Counted from the stretch's first letter, positions 1,772 through 20,346 are shown. The stretch: 32,000 nucleotides of DNA from Coprobacillaceae bacterium (GCA_963675515.1 OY776328.1:1110001-1142000); one strand, 5' to 3'. Notes: generated from the sequence alone by a model not told the origin. A program made the numbers and translations.

Positions 1772-3817
1772 ATGGAAAACAGAAAAAAAGAGAGCATGAT
1801 CCTGGCCAAATACAAGCTGGGATTCACAACCAATCCCCTGCGGATCATACATCTATACCTGGTAATCGGTTTTGGCTGGATATTGCTGTCGGATACCGTG
1901 TTGAATGCCCTTATCAATGACAGCAGGCTCAATGCCACATTGCAATCGTACAAAGGGGCCCTTTATGTCTTGTGGACCGGGGCATTGTTGTTTGTGATAA
2001 TCAGGAAGGATTACAACCGGATACTGGATCTGACCGCAAAGGTGGCCTTGAAAAATGAGGAACTAACCGAATACTCAAATGACCTGGAAACCGCCAAGAA
2101 GATGCTTAAAAGCCAGGTGAAGGCCTTGAACCGGTCATTGGATACCATCAATAGCCATAAGGAGTTTTCCCAGGCCATATACGACAATGCCAACACGGCC
2201 ATAGTGATGTTGAATATCTCCGGCGAGATAATGGATTACAACGAATATTTCACCGAACTCTTCGGGTATCAATCAGGGGAGATAACCGGGGAAAAATGGC
2301 ACAATTTTCTTGCCAATCTCGATGATGACCTGATCGAAACAATGAGGAATGCGCTCAACCGCGACAAGTTCATCAACAACTACGAAAGCCAGGCCATAAC
2401 CAAGGATGGCCAGCTGCTCGAAATCGTCTGGAACAACAACCTGATCAAGGATCCCGTTTCTAATGAGCCGGTGATATTCTGTATCGGCATCGACCGGACA
2501 ATCGAGAAGCAAAACGAGCGCCAGATTTATGAGCTTGCCTACAAGGACCGCATTACCGGGCTTGACAATCAGCTGGTATTCGAAAACCAGCTGGAAAAGC
2601 TTATCAAAGACAACTGTGATTTCACCCTGTATTACCTGGATTTCGACAACTTCCGCAATCTCAACGACATCCATGGCCATCACTATGGCGATTGTTTCTT
2701 GCGGGACTACGCCAACATGATCAAGGATGAATTCCCTACGATCAAGCCGTTTCGATTCGGTGGTGACGAGTTCATGCTTCTCGACGGCAAATGCGACGAC
2801 GATAATGTCAATAAGAACCTAGAGCGGCTTTTTGAAAAGACTAACCAGGCCTTCGCATATGGGGATTTTTCTTACTACCCGTCGATCAGCGTGGGTGTGG
2901 TTAAATATCCTGAAGACGGAAACAACCGCGGGACTATTTTCAAGAATATCGACCTGGCCTTGTATAAAGCCAAGACCAAAGGAAAGAACCAGGCGGTCAA
3001 ATACCATCTCGAAATTCATCAGGAGATTGAAACCAGCATCCTGATTGAAAACGGCATCCGCTCGATGCTTCTAAACGATGACTTTGTTTCTTACTACCAA
3101 CCGATTCATGATTTCAAAACAAAAGCGATCGTCGGGGTGGAATCACTGCTTCGCTGGGACCGGGCGATTCTCGAATGCAACCCCGACCAGCTTATCGAGG
3201 TGGCCGAACAGACCGGGCAGATTGTCGCCATCGACCGCTGGGTGGTATCCAACAGTTTCCAATTCAAGAACCGATACCTTAAAGATGAAAATATGACCAT
3301 GTCGATAAATCTGTCAACCCGGACAATCGAGTCACCGGGAATGATGGAATATCTGATGGAACAGCTGCAGCTCCACCGGATCGACCCAACGATGATAATA
3401 TTTGAAATCACCGAGCATTCCCTGTTTGACAATATGGAAAACAGCCAACACCTTGTCAAGAAACTCAAGACAATGGGCTTCAAGATCGCTCTTGATGATT
3501 TTGGGACCCGCTATTCATCGCTCAACTATTTGAAGAGTCTGGATATCGACCGGTTGAAAATCGACAAGCTCTATATCGACAAGATCATCGAATCCGACAA
3601 TGACAGCATCATTGTAGAGCAGATGATCCTGCTTGCTTCCAGGCTGGGAATCGAAACAGTGGCCGAGGGGATCGAATGTGAACGTCAGTTCGAACTTCTC
3701 AGATCGATGGGCTGCACTTATGCCCAGGGATACCTGATGGCAAGACCCCTTTGTGGTAACGACCTGATAAATCTAATTGAAGACAATGAAAAAAGTCCTA
3801 ATCAGTATTCTGACTAA
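1772..3817 (+). CDS. Membrane-anchored PAS-GGDEF-EAL c-di-GMP turnover protein
   Basis: 681 aa. There are two N-terminal hydrophobic helices, a coiled-coil region and a PAS-like segment. The GGDEF domain has RFGGDEF and YKAKTKGKNQ. The EAL domain has VESLLRW, FEITEH, LDDFGTRYSSL, KIDK, VAEGIE and QGY. It starts 9 nt after the previous stop, so co-transcription is likely. Confidence 0.9.
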   Translation: MENRKKESMILAKYKLGFTTNPLRIIHLYLVIGFGWILLSDTVLNALINDSRLNATLQSYKGALYVLWTGALLFVIIRKDYNRILDLTAKVALKNEELTEYSNDLETAKKMLKSQVKALNRSLDTINSHKEFSQAIYDNANTAIVMLNISGEIMDYNEYFTELFGYQSGEITGEKWHNFLANLDDDLIETMRNALNRDKFINNYESQAITKDGQLLEIVWNNNLIKDPVSNEPVIFCIGIDRTIEKQNERQIYELAYKDRITGLDNQLVFENQLEKLIKDNCDFTLYYLDFDNFRNLNDIHGHHYGDCFLRDYANMIKDEFPTIKPFRFGGDEFMLLDGKCDDDNVNKNLERLFEKTNQAFAYGDFSYYPSISVGVVKYPEDGNNRGTIFKNIDLALYKAKTKGKNQAVKYHLEIHQEIETSILIENGIRSMLLNDDFVSYYQPIHDFKTKAIVGVESLLRWDRAILECNPDQLIEVAEQTGQIVAIDRWVVSNSFQFKNRYLKDENMTMSINLSTRTIESPGMMEYLMEQLQLHRIDPTMIIFEITEHSLFDNMENSQHLVKKLKTMGFKIALDDFGTRYSSLNYLKSLDIDRLKIDKLYIDKIIESDNDSIIVEQMILLASRLGIETVAEGIECERQFELLRSMGCTYAQGYLMARPLCGNDLINLIEDNEKSPNQYSD

Positions 3818-3826
3818 GACTTTTTT
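3789..3826. terminator. Bidirectional intrinsic terminator overlapping the 3' ends of two convergent CDSs
   Basis: AAAAAAGTCCTAATCAG (3789-3805), loop tatt, then CTGACTAAGACTTTTTT (3810-3826). This is a 17-bp stem with 2 mismatches, flanked by A6 and T6. Only 7 nt separate the two stop codons. Confidence 0.6.
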
Positions 3827-6353
3827 ATTTTTCCTGTTCAATTACCGGGACGATTTTTTGTTTGCGGACCAGATCGGCAAAAATTATTGCCAATTCAGGA
3901 TCGAACTGGGTTCCGGCGTTTTTCAGGATTTCCTGCAAGGCGAACTCAAGAGGCCGGTTTTCCTTGTATGAACGTTTTGAGAGCATCGCGTCGAAACTGT
4001 CGGCGATGCAAAGGATCCTTGCGAACAGCGGAATGTCGTTGCCGCGAACCTTGCGGGGATAACCGTTGCCGTCCCAACGCTCATGATGGCCGATGACGGC
4101 CGGAATAACGTAGGTCAGTGATGGGATGTGCTTGATGATGGCTACCGAATTTTCCACATGGGTCTGCATTATCGAGCGCTCCTCATCGGTGAGGCGTCCG
4201 GTCTTGTTGAGGATTTTCTCATCGACACCGATCTTGCCGATGTCGTGAAGCAATGCCGCTTCCTTGATGATTTCAATCGAATCCTTGTCCATGTTCAAGC
4301 CATAAGCCAGCTCGGTCGCATAGTAGCAGACGTTGTTGGAATGACTGTAGGTGTAGTGGTCTTTGGTGTCGATCGCCGCCGTCAGAGCATGGATCATTGC
4401 CGCATATTCCGAATATATTTCAGCCTTGTGTTCCACTTCATCGTCGGGATTCTCGTTGCGTTTGACAACTTGGCCGGTGGAAATCCGGATGCTGTCCTTG
4501 CCGGAGCGCTTGACATGATAAATCGCCAACTCGGCATCGTTGATCAGCACGGTCGGGTTGTTGGCCAGAAACGGAATGGTCGAAATGCCGACGCTGACGG
4601 TGATCCGCTTCATTTTGTAGTTTTCCCGTTTGGAATTGATCTGGTTGATCTGTTTGGAGATTTTCTGGGCGATCAGCCTTGTCTGGTTGACATCGTAGTT
4701 CGGGAATACGCAGGCGAATACCTTGGAATCGTAGCGGGCGCAGATGCCGATGCCTTCCATAGTGGCCTTGATGATCCTTGCCACCTCGATCAGGACGGTA
4801 TCTCCTTCATTGTAGCCATAAAGCTGGTTGTAGAGCTTGAAGTCGTCGATATTGAATATAGCGATCGAAAGCAAGCCGTCATGACGTTTTTTCTCGAGGT
4901 CCTTGAGCGCGGCCAGGAAATACTTGCGATTAAGCAGTTTTGTCAGATCATCCTTGCGGGCCTCGTTGTATACCACCTCGTAAAGCTGGGCTTTTGACAG
5001 GGCGGTCGAAGAGATCAGCGAAATATTTTCCAAAAAGTCAATGTCATCATCGGTGAACTTCGATGACTTGTTTTTGTGGGTAAGCATCAGGATGCCGACC
5101 AACTTTTCATCGTCGATCAAAGGGACGAAACATTCGATATTCAGGTAATCGAGTTCCTTCTTTTCATCGGTCCACATCGACTTGTAGGCATTAAGCTTTT
5201 TGAGGTCATCAAGCAGGATGCAATCACGGGTGTTATTGAGCAGCATGACCAGAGGATTGTTGAGCTCCAACCTGAAGTCGATTAGATTCAGCGGGTTGCT
5301 GGTATTGATGACATGGAAATGCTCATTCTTGTTATCGGGAAGCAATACATATGTTTCTTTTACGTCCAAGGTATCCTTGATGACGTTTACAATCAGTCGG
5401 GAAATCTCTTTGACTTTCAAGCTCGAGAAAGCGTTGTTTTTGAATTCTTTCAGGATATTTGTCCGGATTGTGTCATCCGATATATAGATTCGGTTGATGA
5501 ACAGCTCCAGCGCCCTGTAGAAAATAAAGGCAAAGACCGTAAAGCAAACGCTAATGATCATTACTTGATTTTCGATTGGAAAATTGAAGTTTTGCAGCAA
5601 TAGATCTTCTATTAAGTGAATCGATTGCATAAGTATCAATAATGATATGATGACCGAGATCAGGTAGACGATCCAGCGGGAAATCAACAAGTCAAGCTTG
5701 AATAATTTTTTCTTATATAATGAATAAAATAGAGCGAAGGCAAAGAAAACACTGGCAATGATATCAATCGGGATTCCCTGCAAAAAAGGCAATACAGTCA
5801 ATAAGTGTCCCAGAAGCAAAACGACTATCCCGATTTTCAAGGGATCAAAAGCGCTGTGGGAAAATTGGTTTGCTTCAGTCTTGACAAACAGGACCTTGAA
5901 GATGAAAAAGATAATAACTGAAGCAAGTACAAACAAGAAGGCTACCGGCCAAGAGGCGTGGTATATGAATAAACTATTACCTTCAGGAGAAATGACGATT
6001 TCAGGCTGGGCCAGGAAAAAACCGGTAATGGTGTTGATGAGCATGAATACAACACATGACACCAGCAGGACCAAATCAACCATATTCCGTTTGATTTCGG
6101 AAAAGTTTTTGACAAAAATCAAAAATTCGTAAGTGGCAAAGATGATTCCAAACAGCGAAATATCATACCAGATCTTGGTTATGTTCAAAAACTGGGTCCT
6201 CATCAGGAAGGATCCGCCACTCCACAGCGTAAGATATACAAGCACCATTATGAACGAGTTGATAACCGGGGATTTTTTGGCAGCAAGAAAAGCTAACAAT
6301 AAGAAGCTAAAGCAAGCTACGGCTATAGCAGGAACAATTGTGTAATCAATCAT
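3825..6353 (-). CDS. Polytopic membrane sensor with GAF-like, degenerate GGDEF and HD-GYP domains (predicted c-di-GMP phosphodiesterase)
   Basis: 842 aa. About 290 aa of multi-span hydrophobic N-terminus come first. The GGDEF-like domain has RYDSKVF in place of the R-x-GGDEF signature (aa 540-546, nt 4716-4736). The HD-GYP domain is intact (LLHDIGKIG, GHHERWDGNGYP). The ATG at 6353 overlaps the upstream gene's stop by 8 nt. Confidence 0.88.
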   Translation of the reverse strand: MIDYTIVPAIAVACFSFLLLAFLAAKKSPVINSFIMVLVYLTLWSGGSFLMRTQFLNITKIWYDISLFGIIFATYEFLIFVKNFSEIKRNMVDLVLLVSCVVFMLINTITGFFLAQPEIVISPEGNSLFIYHASWPVAFLFVLASVIIFFIFKVLFVKTEANQFSHSAFDPLKIGIVVLLLGHLLTVLPFLQGIPIDIIASVFFAFALFYSLYKKKLFKLDLLISRWIVYLISVIISLLILMQSIHLIEDLLLQNFNFPIENQVMIISVCFTVFAFIFYRALELFINRIYISDDTIRTNILKEFKNNAFSSLKVKEISRLIVNVIKDTLDVKETYVLLPDNKNEHFHVINTSNPLNLIDFRLELNNPLVMLLNNTRDCILLDDLKKLNAYKSMWTDEKKELDYLNIECFVPLIDDEKLVGILMLTHKNKSSKFTDDDIDFLENISLISSTALSKAQLYEVVYNEARKDDLTKLLNRKYFLAALKDLEKKRHDGLLSIAIFNIDDFKLYNQLYGYNEGDTVLIEVARIIKATMEGIGICARYDSKVFACVFPNYDVNQTRLIAQKISKQINQINSKRENYKMKRITVSVGISTIPFLANNPTVLINDAELAIYHVKRSGKDSIRISTGQVVKRNENPDDEVEHKAEIYSEYAAMIHALTAAIDTKDHYTYSHSNNVCYYATELAYGLNMDKDSIEIIKEAALLHDIGKIGVDEKILNKTGRLTDEERSIMQTHVENSVAIIKHIPSLTYVIPAVIGHHERWDGNGYPRKVRGNDIPLFARILCIADSFDAMLSKRSYKENRPLEFALQEILKNAGTQFDPELAIIFADLVRKQKIVPVIEQEK

Positions 6354-7968
6354 ATTTTACCCCCATGTACTCCCCGACTCGCTGCTGGATGTCGACCAAA
6401 TCACGGATCTCATATTTCGATGGATTGAATGATTTGACTGGCTTTTGATAGACTTGTTGGTACTTATCGAATGTGCCACAGCGCAAGATAGTAATTTCCA
6501 ATGGGTCCATGCCCAGGATTGTTTTCAAAGATTCATAATCCGAATCGATATAGCGGAAATAGATTCCCAGCTGACCTTGGAGAATATCTTTAAGGTATGC
6601 CGAATCGATCAATGTGCTCTGGTCAAGTTCGACATACATATGCAATAACGGTTTGTTGTTCTGGTTGTATTCCTTGACGATCGCATAATTTTTGATGTCA
6701 AGATTTGCCAGGGCAATGACATTGTCGATTAGTTCTTTGGTGATCCGGGTGAATCCGGCTATATCGATGACATCGGGGGACCGATCCACGAACTTGAATC
6801 GTGGCAGACCCTTGTCATTCTTTCCTACGCACTTATAGACATCTTTGATCCGGTAACGCATGAACGCTCCGCCTTTCAATACGGAAATCACAAGTTCATA
6901 AACGCCATCGACCTCGAGCTCGTTGAACAGATAGGTCTTTGGGTTGTAGTTTTCATCATCGATACACCGATACATGTCCGATTCTTTTATGAATTCATAG
7001 AAGCAGGCATCGGGAAAGAAATACATTCCATTGCGGTTGTAGTCCTCGGTTCCTACGCAAGTCGGCTCGGTCCCGGCAAAAACTTCCAGTGGAGTAATGC
7101 CCCACATCGACTCTAGTTCATCTTTGTAGCAGTCGCTGTCGGCCCCGGTAATCATGAATCCTTTGAGCTTGAAGAAGTCTTTTGGCATGAGCTCGCGATT
7201 TTCTTGTTTACAAACTCGTTTCGCATTTATGTATCGCAAAACCATTTTCAATGGAACTTTGGATTTTTTTTCTTTATCAATCGGACCAGATCCCCCGGTC
7301 CTCATCGCCGGAAAACTTTTGGAAATGTAGTAGGTCACCGATGCCAATCCGAAGAAATAATCGATGCCCCGCTGCAAACCGAGTTTGAAACCTTCCTTGT
7401 TGCGATCTTTGAAACTCATGTCTTCAGCAGTTTCGACATCAGGCAGGAAATCGACATCCACGTTCATCGACAGTGCCCGAGGCAACAGTCCGGTCGCATA
7501 AGGCAGTGGTGCCAGCGCGTAAAGGAAAGTGTTGTCAGGTTCGATATCGTAATGATACTTGCCTTTTGAAGTTGCCTGGATCATGCAGGCGAAGACATTG
7601 TCCTTGAATGAATCGATCATGTCGCTTGTGTAAGGTGCGAGCTTGACTGGATGTTTGCCGCCTTCCCAGGTGGTCTTGATCCAGATTACCGCTTTGCTTG
7701 GCAGCAGGTCATCCCTTTTCAAAAGGAGGATGTCGGCATAATCCTGGTAATTGGTCAGCGGGAATGTCCGCCGGAATTCCTCGACGCTTGATATTTCCTC
7801 TTTAAGCAAAGATTTCCCCAATGGCGATTTTTGCCACAATCTTAGCTGTTCTTTCATCAAGCGGTTCTGGATGGCCATGAATTCATCTATTGTCAAATCC
7901 AAAAAGCCGCAGTACTGGTCCCATATTTCCTTTTTGCTTTTTGATTTGTAATCATCCTTAAAACTCAT
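6346..7968 (-). CDS. GH3-like protein (GH3 auxin-responsive-promoter / acyl-acid amido synthetase fold), divergent
   Basis: 540 aa. The layout matches recalled bacterial GH3 family landmarks: SVEEFRRTFPLTNYQDY, a P-loop position reading IKTTWEGGKHPVKLAPYT, GMYFFPDACFYEFI, YELVISV..GAFMRYRIKD and PRFKFVDRSPDVIDIAG. The RBS is GGAGAAA. Its start overlaps the upstream gene by 11 nt. Confidence 0.6.
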   Translation of the reverse strand: MSFKDDYKSKSKKEIWDQYCGFLDLTIDEFMAIQNRLMKEQLRLWQKSPLGKSLLKEEISSVEEFRRTFPLTNYQDYADILLLKRDDLLPSKAVIWIKTTWEGGKHPVKLAPYTSDMIDSFKDNVFACMIQATSKGKYHYDIEPDNTFLYALAPLPYATGLLPRALSMNVDVDFLPDVETAEDMSFKDRNKEGFKLGLQRGIDYFFGLASVTYYISKSFPAMRTGGSGPIDKEKKSKVPLKMVLRYINAKRVCKQENRELMPKDFFKLKGFMITGADSDCYKDELESMWGITPLEVFAGTEPTCVGTEDYNRNGMYFFPDACFYEFIKESDMYRCIDDENYNPKTYLFNELEVDGVYELVISVLKGGAFMRYRIKDVYKCVGKNDKGLPRFKFVDRSPDVIDIAGFTRITKELIDNVIALANLDIKNYAIVKEYNQNNKPLLHMYVELDQSTLIDSAYLKDILQGQLGIYFRYIDSDYESLKTILGMDPLEITILRCGTFDKYQQVYQKPVKSFNPSKYEIRDLVDIQQRVGEYMGVKYD

Positions 7969-8527
7969 AATTTTCTCCTTTTTGAATAACCCTTTTTATC
8001 GATCTGTATGAAGGGATCAGAAATGGCACATCCTTCTTGTAATCCTGATAGTCATGGAACGTCCTTACAAAGGTGTAGTTGTCCTGGATGACAATGTAGA
8101 TCAGGTTCATCAATGAAGAGACTGCCGCGAAAAGTGTGAAAGTCATGTCATTGAAGACGAAGATCAAAGAGACATACATCAAGATGAACCATAAAACCCC
8201 GATATGTCGTGATAAACCGTACATTCCCGTTCTTATTGCCTTGGTCTGGTCGAATGCGACATAGGTCGATTCGAATGGCAGGGCGAAAAACAGGGTGTAG
8301 ATCAGCAGGCATAAAAATATAAGCGCGCAGCCTATCAGTATGATTGACGAGCTTGTAAAAGCGATGGCGTCTTTAAGCCGGTAAAACAAAGCGACATTGG
8401 TCAGTGTGAAGATTCCACTCGCAAACAGAAACAGTTTGTCGAGCAGTTTGTTCTTAATTGTGACACTGTTGATGTCATAGATAATATATAGACTAAAAAC
8501 TCCAAATGCAATCAAGTGATAGATCAT
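7958..8527 (-). CDS. Small polytopic membrane protein, ICMT/PEMT-like (isoprenylcysteine carboxyl / phospholipid methyltransferase family-like)
   Basis: The track ORF starts at a TTG (8542). The ATG at 8527 with GGGGGA 7 nt upstream is preferred, giving 189 aa and 5-6 TM helices. The C-terminal pattern TGMYGLSRHIG...DYQDYKKDVPFLIP resembles the ICMT/PEMT signature (G-x-Y-x-x-x-RHP...Y-x-x-Y-x-x-x-V-x-x-x-IP). Confidence 0.45.
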   Translation of the reverse strand: MIYHLIAFGVFSLYIIYDINSVTIKNKLLDKLFLFASGIFTLTNVALFYRLKDAIAFTSSSIILIGCALIFLCLLIYTLFFALPFESTYVAFDQTKAIRTGMYGLSRHIGVLWFILMYVSLIFVFNDMTFTLFAAVSSLMNLIYIVIQDNYTFVRTFHDYQDYKKDVPFLIPSYRSIKRVIQKGENYEF

Positions 8528-8939
8528 AGCGCAATCCCCCAAAAATATGATAACACTATTTTTAGTAATTTACTAATATTATCGTAAAAATATGCGCTTT
8601 TTTTGCATCATTTGTCTCTTAACAAGAGGATATTTAGATTATTATTACCAATATGTTATAAAATAGACAAATAGTTTTGTATAAAAAACAAATACGGAAA
8701 TTTCTTGTCAAGCAAATATATTTTACATATGTAACATAATTTAATGGTGGGTAATAAATATTGCTGGGTTTCCCCGCTCCTTCATTCATGAATATCGTCA
8801 GATCTTAACGCCTATGAAACAATGTTTCGTAAATATGGATAAATCGGATAAAATCATGAAACGAAATTGAGAAGTAAGGTCCTGCCCTTTACAAAATATT
8901 TTAAAGTTTTAAAATGGAAGCAAATAAGGAGGATTTACA

Positions 8940-10319
8940 ATGGAAAGAAAGTTCCCAAAAGATTTTTACTGGGGTGGCTCAGTTTCTTCATTCCAGACTG
9001 AAGGTGCCCGTGATGAAGGTGGAAAAGGTCTGTGCATCTATGATGTCCGCCCGACCAATCCAGAATTCAGCGACTGGTCGGTGGCAATCGATGCCTACCA
9101 CCGTTATGACGAAGATATCGCCTTGATGAAAGAGATGGGCTTCAATTTTTACCGTTTCTCGATCTGCTGGTCTAGGATCATCCCCAACGGTGATGATGCG
9201 GTCAATGAAGAGGGTGTAAAATTCTACAGCGATCTTATTGACAAGCTGATCGCGGCTGGTATCGAGCCGATGATCACGCTGGTCCACTTCGACATGCCTT
9301 ACAAGCTGGTTAAGGAACATAACGGTTTTGCTTCAAGGTTTGTCGTTGACTGCTTTGAACGATATGCTCGAGTTTGCATCGAACGATTCGGTGATAGGGT
9401 AAAACATTGGATGAGTTTCAATGAACAGAACCTTCACGGGATGATGTTAAGGGTGTCGAATGCCGAAACGGTGCCTGAAGGAGTCGACCCTGCCAAACAT
9501 CTCTACCAGGTCAACCACAATGTCTTCATCGCCCATTGCAAGGCGGTAAGAGCGTTGCGCCAGCTCCAAAGCGATGCCAAGTTCTGCGGGATGAATGCGG
9601 TGACCAATTTCTATCCGGCAACCAACACTCCTAAAAACAACCTGTTTGCCTGGCAGGCGTACCAATACATGAACGGATTCCATTGCGATGTGTTCACATA
9701 TGGAAAATATCCCGACTATATGGTGGCCTATCTGGAAAACCGTGGCTGGATGCCTGTTTTCGAAGATGAGGATGAGGAACTGTTGAAATATACGGTTGAC
9801 TATATCGCATTTAGCTATTACCGTTCGAACACCCTGACCGAAGGGGAATTCGACTACAAACGGCCATACCATGAAATCGTCGGGGAACATACCATTAAGA
9901 ATCCAAACCTGGAAGCCAATGAATGGAACTGGGAAATCGATGCGATCGGTTTTAGATGGACACTAAACGAACTGGCAAACCGTTCACACCTGCCGGTGTT
10001 CGTTCTTGAAAACGGGATCGGATGGCGCGAAGAGCTTGACGAAAATGGAATGATCGAAGACGACTACCGCATCTGTTATCACCGCGACCATATCCAGGAA
10101 ATGAAAAACGCGATGATCGAAGAAGGTGTCAACTGCATGGGTTACGTGACCTGGGGACCAATCGACATCCCGGCAAGCATGTGTGACATGTCGAAACGCT
10201 ACGGTTTCGTCTTTGTCAACCGCACAAACAAGGACTTGCGCGACCTGGCAAGAATCCCGAAAAAATCATTCAAATGGGTCAAAAAAGCCTTCGAATCTAA
10301 TGGGGAAGATTTGGCTTAG
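8940..10319 (+). CDS. Glycoside hydrolase family 1, 6-phospho-beta-glucosidase type
   Basis: 459 aa. The N-terminus is FPKDFYWGGSVSSFQTEGA, the acid/base motif is SFNEQN and the nucleophile motif is LENGIG. The C-terminal S..MSKRYGFVFVN is typical of phospho-sugar-specific GH1 enzymes. A strong RBS, AAGGAGG, precedes the start. Confidence 0.88.
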   Translation: MERKFPKDFYWGGSVSSFQTEGARDEGGKGLCIYDVRPTNPEFSDWSVAIDAYHRYDEDIALMKEMGFNFYRFSICWSRIIPNGDDAVNEEGVKFYSDLIDKLIAAGIEPMITLVHFDMPYKLVKEHNGFASRFVVDCFERYARVCIERFGDRVKHWMSFNEQNLHGMMLRVSNAETVPEGVDPAKHLYQVNHNVFIAHCKAVRALRQLQSDAKFCGMNAVTNFYPATNTPKNNLFAWQAYQYMNGFHCDVFTYGKYPDYMVAYLENRGWMPVFEDEDEELLKYTVDYIAFSYYRSNTLTEGEFDYKRPYHEIVGEHTIKNPNLEANEWNWEIDAIGFRWTLNELANRSHLPVFVLENGIGWREELDENGMIEDDYRICYHRDHIQEMKNAMIEEGVNCMGYVTWGPIDIPASMCDMSKRYGFVFVNRTNKDLRDLARIPKKSFKWVKKAFESNGEDLA

Positions 10320-18866: not shown

Positions 18867-19304
18867 TCATTGATCGAGCAGCTTGTCTATATCGTTGCTT
18901 GAAAAGATTTCAATACCGGCCTGGTCAAGCAAGTCTGCGGCTATGCCATTGCCGGGGATGAGCGTCTTCGAAAAGGTTCCATCATAGATCAAGCCATGAC
19001 CACATGAAGGCGACCGGACCTGCAACAATGCCTTTTTGCAGTCGCAGATTCGGGCAATCTTCACCGCTTCTTTGGCACCGCCGATGAACTCGCGGTCGAA
19101 GTTCTCGCCATCCCGGTTGCAAAAATGGACCTCCACCTTTTCCACCGGCTTTCTTGGGGTGGCCATGCCCCCGAAGACTTCCGGGCATACTGGAATCAGG
19201 TTGTATTTTTCCTTGAGCTTATCAAGCTGTTCGATCAGGTTGTTTTTGCCATCATAACGGCAGTTGACCCCGAGCAGACAGGCGCTCACAAGCAGATTTT
19301 CCAT
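18867..19304 (-). CDS. DUF523 family protein (TudS-like, 2-thiouracil desulfidase family)
   Basis: 145 aa. LVSACLLGVNCRYDG and PVCPEV.GGM.TPR are the conserved Cys motifs of DUF523. The RBS is GGAGG. Confidence 0.75.
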   Translation of the reverse strand: MENLLVSACLLGVNCRYDGKNNLIEQLDKLKEKYNLIPVCPEVFGGMATPRKPVEKVEVHFCNRDGENFDREFIGGAKEAVKIARICDCKKALLQVRSPSCGHGLIYDGTFSKTLIPGNGIAADLLDQAGIEIFSSNDIDKLLDQ

Positions 19305-19489
19305 GGCTTTGCCTCCTTGTCGTGAATCAATTGTACCACATAAATCAAATCAAAGACAGTCAAAATACCAGACGCTATTATTGGATTTGGGCCTAGGATT
19401 GGCGGCCATGGCATCAAAAGATAAAGGGGTCCTTTCAGGAGTTGATGGCATCATTCTAGCCATGGCTGGAACAATAATATGCTTTTCTC

Positions 19490-19517
19490 TTTACAAATGC
19501 CTCCAGGATGCTATAAT
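19490..19517 (+). promoter_or_regulatory. Sigma-A type promoter driving the FMN riboswitch and ribU
   Basis: The -35 box is TTTACA (19490-19495). A 16-nt spacer follows, then an extended -10 TGcTATAAT (19509-19517). Confidence 0.7.
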
Positions 19518-19529
19518 ACGGTTGAAAAT

Positions 19530-19640
19530 AAAAGTCTTCAGGGCAGGGTTTGATTCCCGACCGGCGGTGACAGTCCGCGAGCGCAAGCTGAGTAGGTGCG
19601 ATTCCTACACCGACAGTATAGTCTGGATAAAAGAAGATCA
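19530..19640 (+). promoter_or_regulatory. FMN riboswitch (RFN element)
   Basis: GTCTTCAGGGCAGGGTTTGATTCCCGACCGGCGGTGACAGTCCGCGAGC...AGGTGCGATTCCTACACCGACAGTATAGTCTGGATAAAAGAAGA matches the conserved RFN core (CTTCGGGGCAGGGTGAAATTCCCGACCGGCGGT ... GCCGACAGTGAAAGTCTGGATGGGAGAAG) almost position for position. Confidence 0.93.
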
Positions 19641-19657
19641 TCACATCTTTTTTGCCG
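19628..19657 (+). terminator. Riboswitch expression-platform terminator
   Basis: AAAAGAAGAT catcac ATCTTTTTT. The stem shares the 3' strand of the P1 helix and runs into a T tract. Confidence 0.6.
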
Positions 19658-19710
19658 TTCATGGAGACCCGTCTTTTCATGACTTTTTTACATTTAAGGA
19701 GAAGATGTTT

Positions 19711-20346
19711 ATGGAAATTACCAAAACGAGAACTTTAGTTACTTTAGCCATGCTTTCGGCCCTTGGCGCATTGTTGAACCTGATTGAAATCCCATATCCC
19801 ATCGCCCCTTGGCTGATGATCGACCTGGCTGAGGTCGTGGTCCTGGTCGCATTCTTGATGCACGGGTTCCAGGGCGGTGTGATTGTCTCTTTCGCCAAAT
19901 TCTTTGTTTCCCTGGTCATCAAGGGACCGGTGGGACCGTTTGGGATCGGGCAGATAACCGCTTTGATCGGGTCGCTTACAATCCTTGGCTTCTACATGCT
20001 GTTCGACAAGGTGTTCAGATCGAAATACCTGCCGGCCATCATTGCGACGATGCTTTGCTTTGCGACTGTCATGGTTGTGATCAACTATCTGTTCGTTACC
20101 CCGACCTACCTTTCACAAAAATTCACCTGGTACACCCAGCTGCCGTATACGCTGGATATCAACGCCTTCAACGAGTATTTCGGGATGAGTCTTCCAAGCC
20201 TGGGATTTTTAGGATGGCTTGGCCCTTATGGTGAGGCGATCTTCATCATCTATTTCCCATTCAACCTGTTGAAGGGACTTGTCACCGGATTTTTCTACCG
20301 GGTATTGAAGCCGGTAATCATCAAGAACTTCATCAAGCGGGCCTAG
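19711..20346 (+). CDS. ribU: ECF transporter S component, riboflavin-specific (RibU-like)
   Basis: It lies downstream of the FMN riboswitch. MEITKTRTLVTLAMLSALGALLNLIEIPYPIAPWLMIDLAEVVVLVAFL is the typical S-component N-terminus. The start is ATG 19711 (9 nt after GGAG) or 19705. The track ORF start at 19264 runs through the riboswitch and is an artefact. Confidence 0.8.
   Translation: MEITKTRTLVTLAMLSALGALLNLIEIPYPIAPWLMIDLAEVVVLVAFLMHGFQGGVIVSFAKFFVSLVIKGPVGPFGIGQITALIGSLTILGFYMLFDKVFRSKYLPAIIATMLCFATVMVVINYLFVTPTYLSQKFTWYTQLPYTLDINAFNEYFGMSLPSLGFLGWLGPYGEAIFIIYFPFNLLKGLVTGFFYRVLKPVIIKNFIKRA

Follow-up and report, generated by a model that had tools for sequence, protein, structure and literature searches.

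Organisation of the locus

The stretch of DNA analysed here, hereafter called the window, is a segment of 32,000 nucleotides (nt) from a Coprobacillaceae bacterium (GCA_963675515.1 OY776328.1:1110001-1142000). Its minus strand carries three consecutive genes, designated geneA, geneB and geneC, which encode an ICMT/PEMT-like membrane protein, a GH3-like enzyme and a membrane protein with GAF, GGDEF and HD-GYP domains, respectively (Table 1). The original prediction, made from the sequence alone, had described these genes as overlapping; the three open reading frames (ORFs) and both junctions were indeed read as claimed, the start codon of geneB sitting within the 3' end of geneA and that of geneC within the 3' end of geneB. 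Because a GGGGGA Shine-Dalgarno sequence stands 8 nt upstream (8535-8540) of the ATG of geneA, this codon is more likely to be the start of the gene than the alternative TTG.

Within the operon, nine promoter-like sites, all weak matches to the consensus, were observed, for 11.6 expected from shuffled sequence, and the terminator-like stems were short ones only. This agrees with the earlier claim that no internal promoter or terminator is evident, and we infer that the three genes are carried by one transcript.

Table 1. Features of the cassette and of its borders, in window coordinates
Feature	Strand	Position	Length or residues	Remarks
geneA	minus	7958..8527	189 residues	ATG at 8527; alternative TTG at 8542 gives 194 residues
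geneB	minus	6346..7968	540 residues	
geneC	minus	3825..6353	842 residues	
geneA/geneB overlap	minus	7958-7968	11 nt	ATGAGTTTTAA; AAAGGAG upstream
geneB/geneC overlap	minus	6346-6353	8 nt	ATGATTGA; GGGGG upstream
geneC, polytopic membrane input domain	minus	5454..6353	residues 1-300	from hydropathy peaks and relatives
geneC, GAF domain	minus	5016..5414	residues 314-446	Pfam GAF, 27.7 bits (cut-off 22.4)
geneC, GGDEF domain, degenerate	minus	4494..4955	residues 467-620	Pfam GGDEF, 3e-29
geneC, HD-GYP domain (predicted phosphodiesterase)	minus	3891..4379	residues 659-821	Pfam HD_5, 7e-39
Intrinsic-terminator-like hairpin	minus	3789..3826	17 pairs and a T-run	directly 3' of geneC
Intergenic region upstream of geneA	minus	8543..8939	about 400 nt	AT-rich, unusually long; geneA is divergent from a GH1 glycosidase gene

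The hairpin that follows geneC is common to this gene and to a convergent gene of the plus strand (1772-3817). The latter encodes a PAS-GGDEF-EAL protein of 681 residues, a second enzyme of c-di-GMP (cyclic dimeric guanosine monophosphate) metabolism converging on geneC. This neighbour was not kept beside the cassette in the other genomes examined.

Conservation of the cassette and exchange of its output domain

When one genome per species was scanned, a close relative of geneB turned up in 334 genomes, and the best 80 loci were compared. At all 80, a geneA homologue was located directly upstream of the geneB homologue, on the same strand. A full-length geneC homologue followed directly downstream in 69 loci, and tblastn found one in 11 of the 12 remaining loci, where ten end at a contig edge. 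At locus L036 the geneC homologue is full-length and had been hidden by an antisense ORF, and at L023 there was no room downstream to look for a sensor gene. The trio, whose synteny had been proposed earlier as a check of the operon, was present in every one of the 80 species genomes where this could be tested.

Among the related loci, the junction between the geneA and geneB homologues was overlapping in 37 of 81 cases and did not exceed 25 nt in 71; for the junction between the geneB and geneC homologues, the corresponding figures were 55 and 67 of 70. Since the junctions overlap or are short across related loci, the tight arrangement of the genes is more than chance. The flanking genes were not conserved: no other neighbour family was found in more than 10 loci, and those that were shared are lineage-specific housekeeping genes. 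No relationship with a defence system was returned by PADLOC.

The carriers are labelled as Bacillota or as unclassified in 79 of the 80 loci and include Erysipelotrichaceae, Coprobacillaceae, Lachnospiraceae, Oscillospiraceae, Anaerovoracaceae, Peptococcaceae, Christensenellales, Eubacteriaceae and Acetobacterium, among others. The sole other label, Candidatus Acidoferrum, belongs to a metagenome-assembled genome assigned to the Acidobacteriota (L018, DATMZG010000047.1), and this contig is probably mis-binned.

Variant loci were then traced from relatives of the seven-transmembrane (7TM) input domain of geneC that are of unusual length. At L081, genes for a response regulator and an Hpt protein precede the ICMT-like and GH3-like genes, and the gene for a 7TM hybrid histidine kinase comes last. 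At L082 (GCA_964391915.1, 2827-5004, plus strand), a single ORF of 725 residues joins an ICMT-like part (2-170) to a GH3-like part (189-715), some 20 residues forming the linker between them, and a 7TM hybrid kinase gene comes after it. L083 (JGI 3300024429) contains an ICMT-like gene, a class I S-adenosylmethionine (SAM) methyltransferase gene (2597-3322, plus strand), a GH3-like gene and then a 7TM-GAF-GAF hybrid kinase gene. The methyltransferase gene adjoins the GH3-like gene on its upstream side. That a non-homologous, soluble methyltransferase had taken the place of the ICMT-like protein was considered at this locus and rejected, the ICMT-like gene being present 2 kb farther upstream. 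Finally, at L084 (Logan SRR15048737), the ICMT-like and GH3-like genes are followed by a 7TM-GAF-GGDEF-EAL gene, the GGDEF domain of which is intact, and a MetK (SAM synthetase) gene is located directly downstream of the cassette (5057-6241, plus strand).

The conserved core is thus the enzyme pair together with the 7TM-GAF input, and HD-GYP is the commonest of several outputs. As the output domain is interchangeable, the core is not c-di-GMP hydrolysis as such. A more distant 7TM-GGDEF protein, P0283, had no adjoining GH3 or ICMT-like gene, which points to a link of the enzymes with one 7TM subfamily specifically. The association with c-di-GMP turnover put forward in the original prediction therefore holds for the commonest form of the cassette, in which an HD-GYP domain is found, but the tie is to the 7TM-GAF input, the outputs being swapped for kinases or GGDEF-EAL in rare relatives.

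It is conceivable, but quite improbable in our estimation, that the enzyme pair acts on the receptor itself: one of the sensor's carboxyl groups would be methylated by the ICMT-like protein and one adenylated or amidated by the GH3-like enzyme, as a form of covalent adaptation or maturation. The methylation of chemoreceptors by CheR/CheB and that of protein C-termini by ICMT follow an analogous logic, and protein carboxyl groups are the canonical substrates of ICMT, whereas all the characterised GH3 enzymes, including the bacterial OlsH considered below, use small-molecule acids. Strict co-occurrence and translational coupling would be usual for stoichiometric partners, and the fusion at L082 suggests that the two enzymes are in physical contact at the membrane. 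An action on the receptor would also agree with the fact that the enzyme pair tracks the 7TM-GAF input rather than the output; yet the receptor C-termini are wholly different (HD-GYP, EAL or REC), so that any target would have to lie within the 7TM-GAF part, and no candidate modification site was identified.

Family assignment of the three proteins

For the geneB product, profile searches against Pfam gave scores above the cut-off of 23.6 bits for GH3_M (7.8e-12, 45.6 bits) and for the GH3 N-domain (7e-7, 29.2 bits), and a score slightly under the cut-off for GH3_C (9.5e-4, 20.3 bits). By phmmer against the PDB, grapevine GH3-1 was matched with an E-value of 1.6e-4. An AlphaFold2 (AF2) model of the protein was obtained with a mean predicted local distance difference test score (pLDDT) of 78. 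In Foldseek searches with this model, the best coverage was obtained with plant GH3 structures, among them JAR1, PBS3 and GH3.6 (4EPL, 4EPM, 7VKA and 9FWD; TMq 0.61-0.63, E-values of about 1e-15 to 1e-16). The nucleotide-binding motifs of reference for GH3 enzymes are SSGTSxGxxK, YGSSE and YRxGD (PMC12493201). Motifs II (FAGTE, 297-301) and III (GAFMRYRIKD, 367-376) are present in the geneB product and invariant in its family, which shows 52-57% identity across orders and a mean column identity of 69% in the family alignment. Judged by Pfam and by its predicted fold, the geneB product is a cytoplasmic GH3-type adenylate-forming enzyme of the ANL superfamily, in agreement with its earlier description as a divergent GH3.

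It has in common with the plant GH3 amido synthetases (JAR1/GH3.11, PBS3/GH3.12 and GH3.6) the N and M domains, the two-domain ANL fold and motifs II and III. The identity is only 13-16%, however, and the P-loop of geneB is divergent; unlike the plant enzymes, it always comes with two partners, a membrane protein and a receptor.

The geneA product is polytopic, with five long helices followed by C-terminal helices in the AF2 model (pLDDT 80). The conserved motifs of its family are YDINS, LFFALPF..TY, G.Y...RH(P/I)GVLWF and QD...F..Y..Y....PFLIP, and in the family alignment nine polar or charged residues in the predicted helices are invariant, including D18, N20, R107, H108, N141, Q148 and D149. 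Among 34 family members, weak Pfam matches were obtained to PEMT (23/34) and to ICMT (16/34). Ten members were scanned individually, and only P0021 exceeded the threshold, with a PEMT score of 28.8 (cut-off 25) in the same region; several homologues are named Ste14 in the JGI annotation. When the family was aligned by hhalign with the C-terminal cofactor region of Ma-ICMT, a probability of 62% and an E-value of 7.7e-5 were obtained over 75 columns, the alignment with Tribolium ICMT being weaker.

The two families also share a motif register, in which G.Y...RH(P) is followed after about 40 residues by [QE][DE]...F..Y..Y.....P with equal spacing; R107-H108 of geneA, and the spacing from there to Q148-D149 and F..Y..Y...P, agree with Ma-ICMT. 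Like the ICMT/Ste14 and PEMT proteins (Ma-ICMT, 4A2N; Tribolium ICMT, 5V7P), the geneA product is small and polytopic, and in ICMT and the geneA family alike the G.Y...RH(P) and [EQ][ED]...F..Y..Y...P motifs are found close to where the last two helices end on the cytoplasmic side. Relatives have E-D or Q-E where geneA has Q-D, and the proline of RHP is missing from the homologues of the Erysipelotrichales clade. When the family profile was searched against PDB sequences, no solved ICMT was found, and a match to YetJ was discarded as spurious, since it covered 28 residues only. We consider geneA to encode a divergent and remote member of the ICMT/PEMT superfamily, which is the weakest of the three family calls; methyltransferase activity is plausible for this protein.

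The third product had been predicted to be a polytopic protein with GAF, degenerate GGDEF and HD-GYP domains, and the three domains were recovered by the Pfam matches given in Table 1. The N-terminal 300 residues of the window protein itself had no match in Pfam. An exhaustive phmmer search with this region returned 248 relatives among 1.84 billion representatives, of which P0388, P0251, P0285 and P0339 score 35-47 bits against HisKA_7TM (PF16927; cut-off 28.6). The N-terminal domain of geneC is thus likely a divergent relative of HisKA_7TM. Its relatives above the threshold carry kinase, GGDEF, EAL or HD-GYP outputs. A separate homologue search with the same region recovered one protein only, too few for a deep-alignment model of the 7TM domain.

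In the GGDEF domain, the signature motif reads RYDSKVF in geneC and R-Y-S-G-K-E-F in the family. Because a lysine replaces the catalytic Asp/Glu in 69 of 69 family members, and because no RxxD I-site was found in the family consensus of this domain, the sequences indicate that the cyclase domain is dead in the whole family. Conversely, the HD (LHDIGK) and HHERWDGNGYP motifs of the HD-GYP domain are intact in geneC and conserved over the 69 members. The geneC product should therefore degrade c-di-GMP, as predicted from these motifs; HD-GYP proteins that lack activity, or that use other nucleotides, are also known.

The region upstream of geneA is presumed to be the promoter or 5' leader of the operon. 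Its sole promoter-like match on the minus strand is at 8670..8641 (9/12 positions), and an Rfam E-value scan of window positions 8450-9000 gave no meaningful RNA family and detected no riboswitch. In other genomes, an Rfam scan of 34 loci revealed one direct case of a c-di-GMP-I riboswitch and one possible case. The first is Parasporobacterium paucivorans (L061), where the riboswitch (7265-7349, plus strand; 60.6 bits for a gathering score of 35) and then a terminator-like hairpin are found directly upstream of the ICMT-like gene (ATG 7419); in this organism, c-di-GMP seems to control the entire cassette. In Faecalicatena contorta (L052), the riboswitch (5216-5296, plus strand) precedes a gene for a solute-binding/5'-nucleotidase-C lipoprotein-like protein of 614 residues, the end of which is 124 nt from the ICMT-like gene, and the locus may be an extended operon. 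With a covariance model for c-di-GMP-I that had been trained on 4 sequences, none but these training sequences were recovered. Elsewhere in the window, an FMN riboswitch (19530-19642, plus strand; 102 bits) appears inside an ORF of 360 residues (19264..20346), the TTG start of which may be over-called, and the next ORF runs from 20437.

A possible ligand-making and ligand-sensing unit

The original prediction had stated that no characterised system links a GH3-type enzyme and an ICMT-like protein to c-di-GMP turnover. In the literature searched on GH3 with HD-GYP, on ICMT with GH3 and on HisKA_7TM, no account of such a cassette was found. We regard the latter as a sensory system with dedicated signal-processing enzymes; its components come from known superfamilies, and their combination was not found described in the literature searched.

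We give about even odds to the following mechanism, in which a lipophilic ligand derived from a carboxylate is made or modified by the enzyme pair and read by the 7TM-GAF sensor, which in turn controls c-di-GMP hydrolysis. The GH3-like enzyme would adenylate a carboxylic acid with ATP, most plausibly a free fatty acid or another lipophilic acid, and join the adenylated acid to an amine or amino acid. Its ICMT-like partner would modify the product or a precursor in the membrane, probably by SAM-dependent methylation at a cytoplasm-facing RH...Q/E-D/E pocket. The resulting lipid-like compound would be bound by the 7TM-GAF module, which might alternatively sense the balance of substrate and product. 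The module would then switch the HD-GYP domain, which would lower c-di-GMP, the dead GGDEF domain serving as a dimerising or regulatory spacer.

This mechanism is supported by the strict gene order and the tight junctions, by the swapping of outputs with retention of the core, by the GH3 motifs and fold of geneB and by the polar residues of geneA and its alignment in the ICMT register. For SAM-dependent methyl transfer, the MetK gene beside the cassette at L084 is circumstantial evidence. For the nature of the substrate, hints are given by the chemistry of OlsH, which converts a free fatty acid into N-acyl ornithine, and by a DegV gene in ten loci (see below). The involvement of c-di-GMP is supported by the intact HD-GYP motifs and by the riboswitch of Parasporobacterium paucivorans. 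The earlier, speculative proposal of a signal-making enzyme pair with a sensing receptor is strengthened, and remains unproven.

Several observations weigh against this mechanism. In the Foldseek comparison, the best E-values for the geneB model were those of PaaK-type CoA ligases (2e-19, at lower coverage), so that the second half-reaction could be the formation of a thioester and not of an amide. Motif I of geneB (TTWEGGKHPVK, 99-109), invariant in its family, diverges strongly from SSGTSxG. The geneA product of the window had no match in Pfam or NCBIfam and is below all profile thresholds, and Foldseek of its model against the PDB gave neither ICMT nor any other match. Furthermore, its methyltransferase activity is uncertain because the canonical RHPxY...EE reads RHIGV...QD, with Pro changed to Ile, Tyr to Val and Glu-Glu to Gln-Asp. 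The additional, soluble SAM methyltransferase at L083 may indicate that the ICMT-like protein is not the methylating enzyme. As for the L082 fusion, it could be a natural Rosetta-stone fusion or an artefact of assembly or frameshift (lost stop codon), and the links with MetK, DegV and the riboswitch were each seen in a single lineage. For geneA, the ICMT/PEMT call of the original prediction thus stands as a remote superfamily link, through family members, hhalign and the motif register, but was not supported by any match of the window protein itself.

The failure of geneA in every direct family test and its degenerate tripartite motif would suit a non-catalytic membrane anchor or adaptor, which docks the GH3-like enzyme beside the sensor; the GH3-like enzyme alone would then be active, for example in adenylating or conjugating a cytoplasmic acid, to be bound by the GAF domain. 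The separate methyltransferase supplied at L083 and the fusion at L082 also fit such a tethering role. We consider it unlikely, as the nine invariant polar or charged helix residues are in the register of the ICMT cofactor pocket and represent more conservation than a passive anchor needs, and as E-D or Q-E is found again in relatives where ICMT has EE.

At the level of whole systems, the closest counterparts are the OlsH/OlsG/OlsI operon, which has the chemistry proposed for the cassette and no sensor, and the Rpf/DSF (diffusible signal factor) cluster. The former contradicts the earlier statement that bacterial GH3 homologues are essentially uncharacterised: OlsH (2025), the only bacterial GH3 that has been characterised, makes N-acyl ornithine from a free fatty acid, ATP and ornithine (PMC12493201). 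OlsH, OlsG and OlsI form the ornithine-lipid operon of Singulisphaera acidiphila, which includes a lipid methyltransferase, and no Bacillota clade was reported in the BLAST census of that study (PMC12493201). As is proposed for the cassette, a bacterial GH3-like ATP-dependent enzyme stands beside a methyltransferase, and the chemistry of OlsH takes place at the membrane. The operon differs by its lack of a sensor protein and by its origin, Planctomycetota and not Bacillota; motif I of OlsH is near-canonical (TSGTTQGATK), in contrast to that of geneB. Moreover, the OlsH operon needs the alpha/beta-hydrolase OlsI, whereas an OlsI-type gene is absent beside the cassette, in which the third conserved gene is the sensor.

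The OlsH/OlsG precedent, with a GH3-like enzyme and a methyltransferase making a membrane lipid, would allow the cassette to be an operon of detoxification or membrane-lipid remodelling, directed at an aminolipid or at conjugated host or environmental acids, with the c-di-GMP enzyme as a merely co-regulated neighbour. A DegV-family (fatty-acid-binding) gene, which precedes the ICMT-like gene directly and in the same orientation at ten loci (L025, L028, L034, L037, L040, L045, L047, L051, L059 and L070), points in the same direction. The two genes are 1-9 nt apart (51 nt at one of the loci), and these loci appear to form a four-gene operon of one Lachnospiraceae clade (Lachnoclostridium/Enterocloster/Hungatella). 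To this explanation we attribute a small probability only: neither an OlsI-type O-acyltransferase nor another lipid gene is conserved beside the trio, and the presence of the 7TM-GAF sensor at every testable locus, even with a kinase output, is hard to explain by co-regulation alone.

In the Rpf/DSF system of Xanthomonas, which is known from Gram-negative bacteria only, RpfF and RpfB are the enzymes, RpfC the sensor and RpfG the HD-GYP protein. As is proposed for the cassette, this cluster associates a membrane sensor and an HD-GYP phosphodiesterase with enzymes that make and turn over a fatty-acid-type signal, among which RpfB is a ligase of the ANL type. However, its sensor and phosphodiesterase are separate proteins joined by phosphotransfer, and a crotonase and a ligase of the FadD type are found instead of a GH3-like and an ICMT-like protein.

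A more specific form of the ligand mechanism, which we find possible but on balance doubtful, is that the cassette is an autocrine or quorum-type unit of anaerobic Bacillota, in which a methylated N-acyl-amino-acid-like lipid signal, made by the GH3-type ligase together with the ICMT-like methyltransferase, would be read in the membrane by the co-transcribed 7TM-GAF receptor. The read-out would be c-di-GMP degradation, or a phosphorelay in sister lineages. If true, bacterial signalling would rely on GH3 conjugation chemistry in the style of plant hormones. [quoted passage not shown]

For most membrane-embedded c-di-GMP and histidine-kinase sensors, no ligand is known to us. In the present case, the chemistry of the ligand is pointed to by the genome itself, through two enzymes that are never parted from the input module, and this genomic linkage makes the ligand of an orphan sensor experimentally tractable. 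Its identification would give a first function both to the Bacillota branch of GH3 and to the ICMT/PEMT-like membrane proteins that form a large orphan branch.

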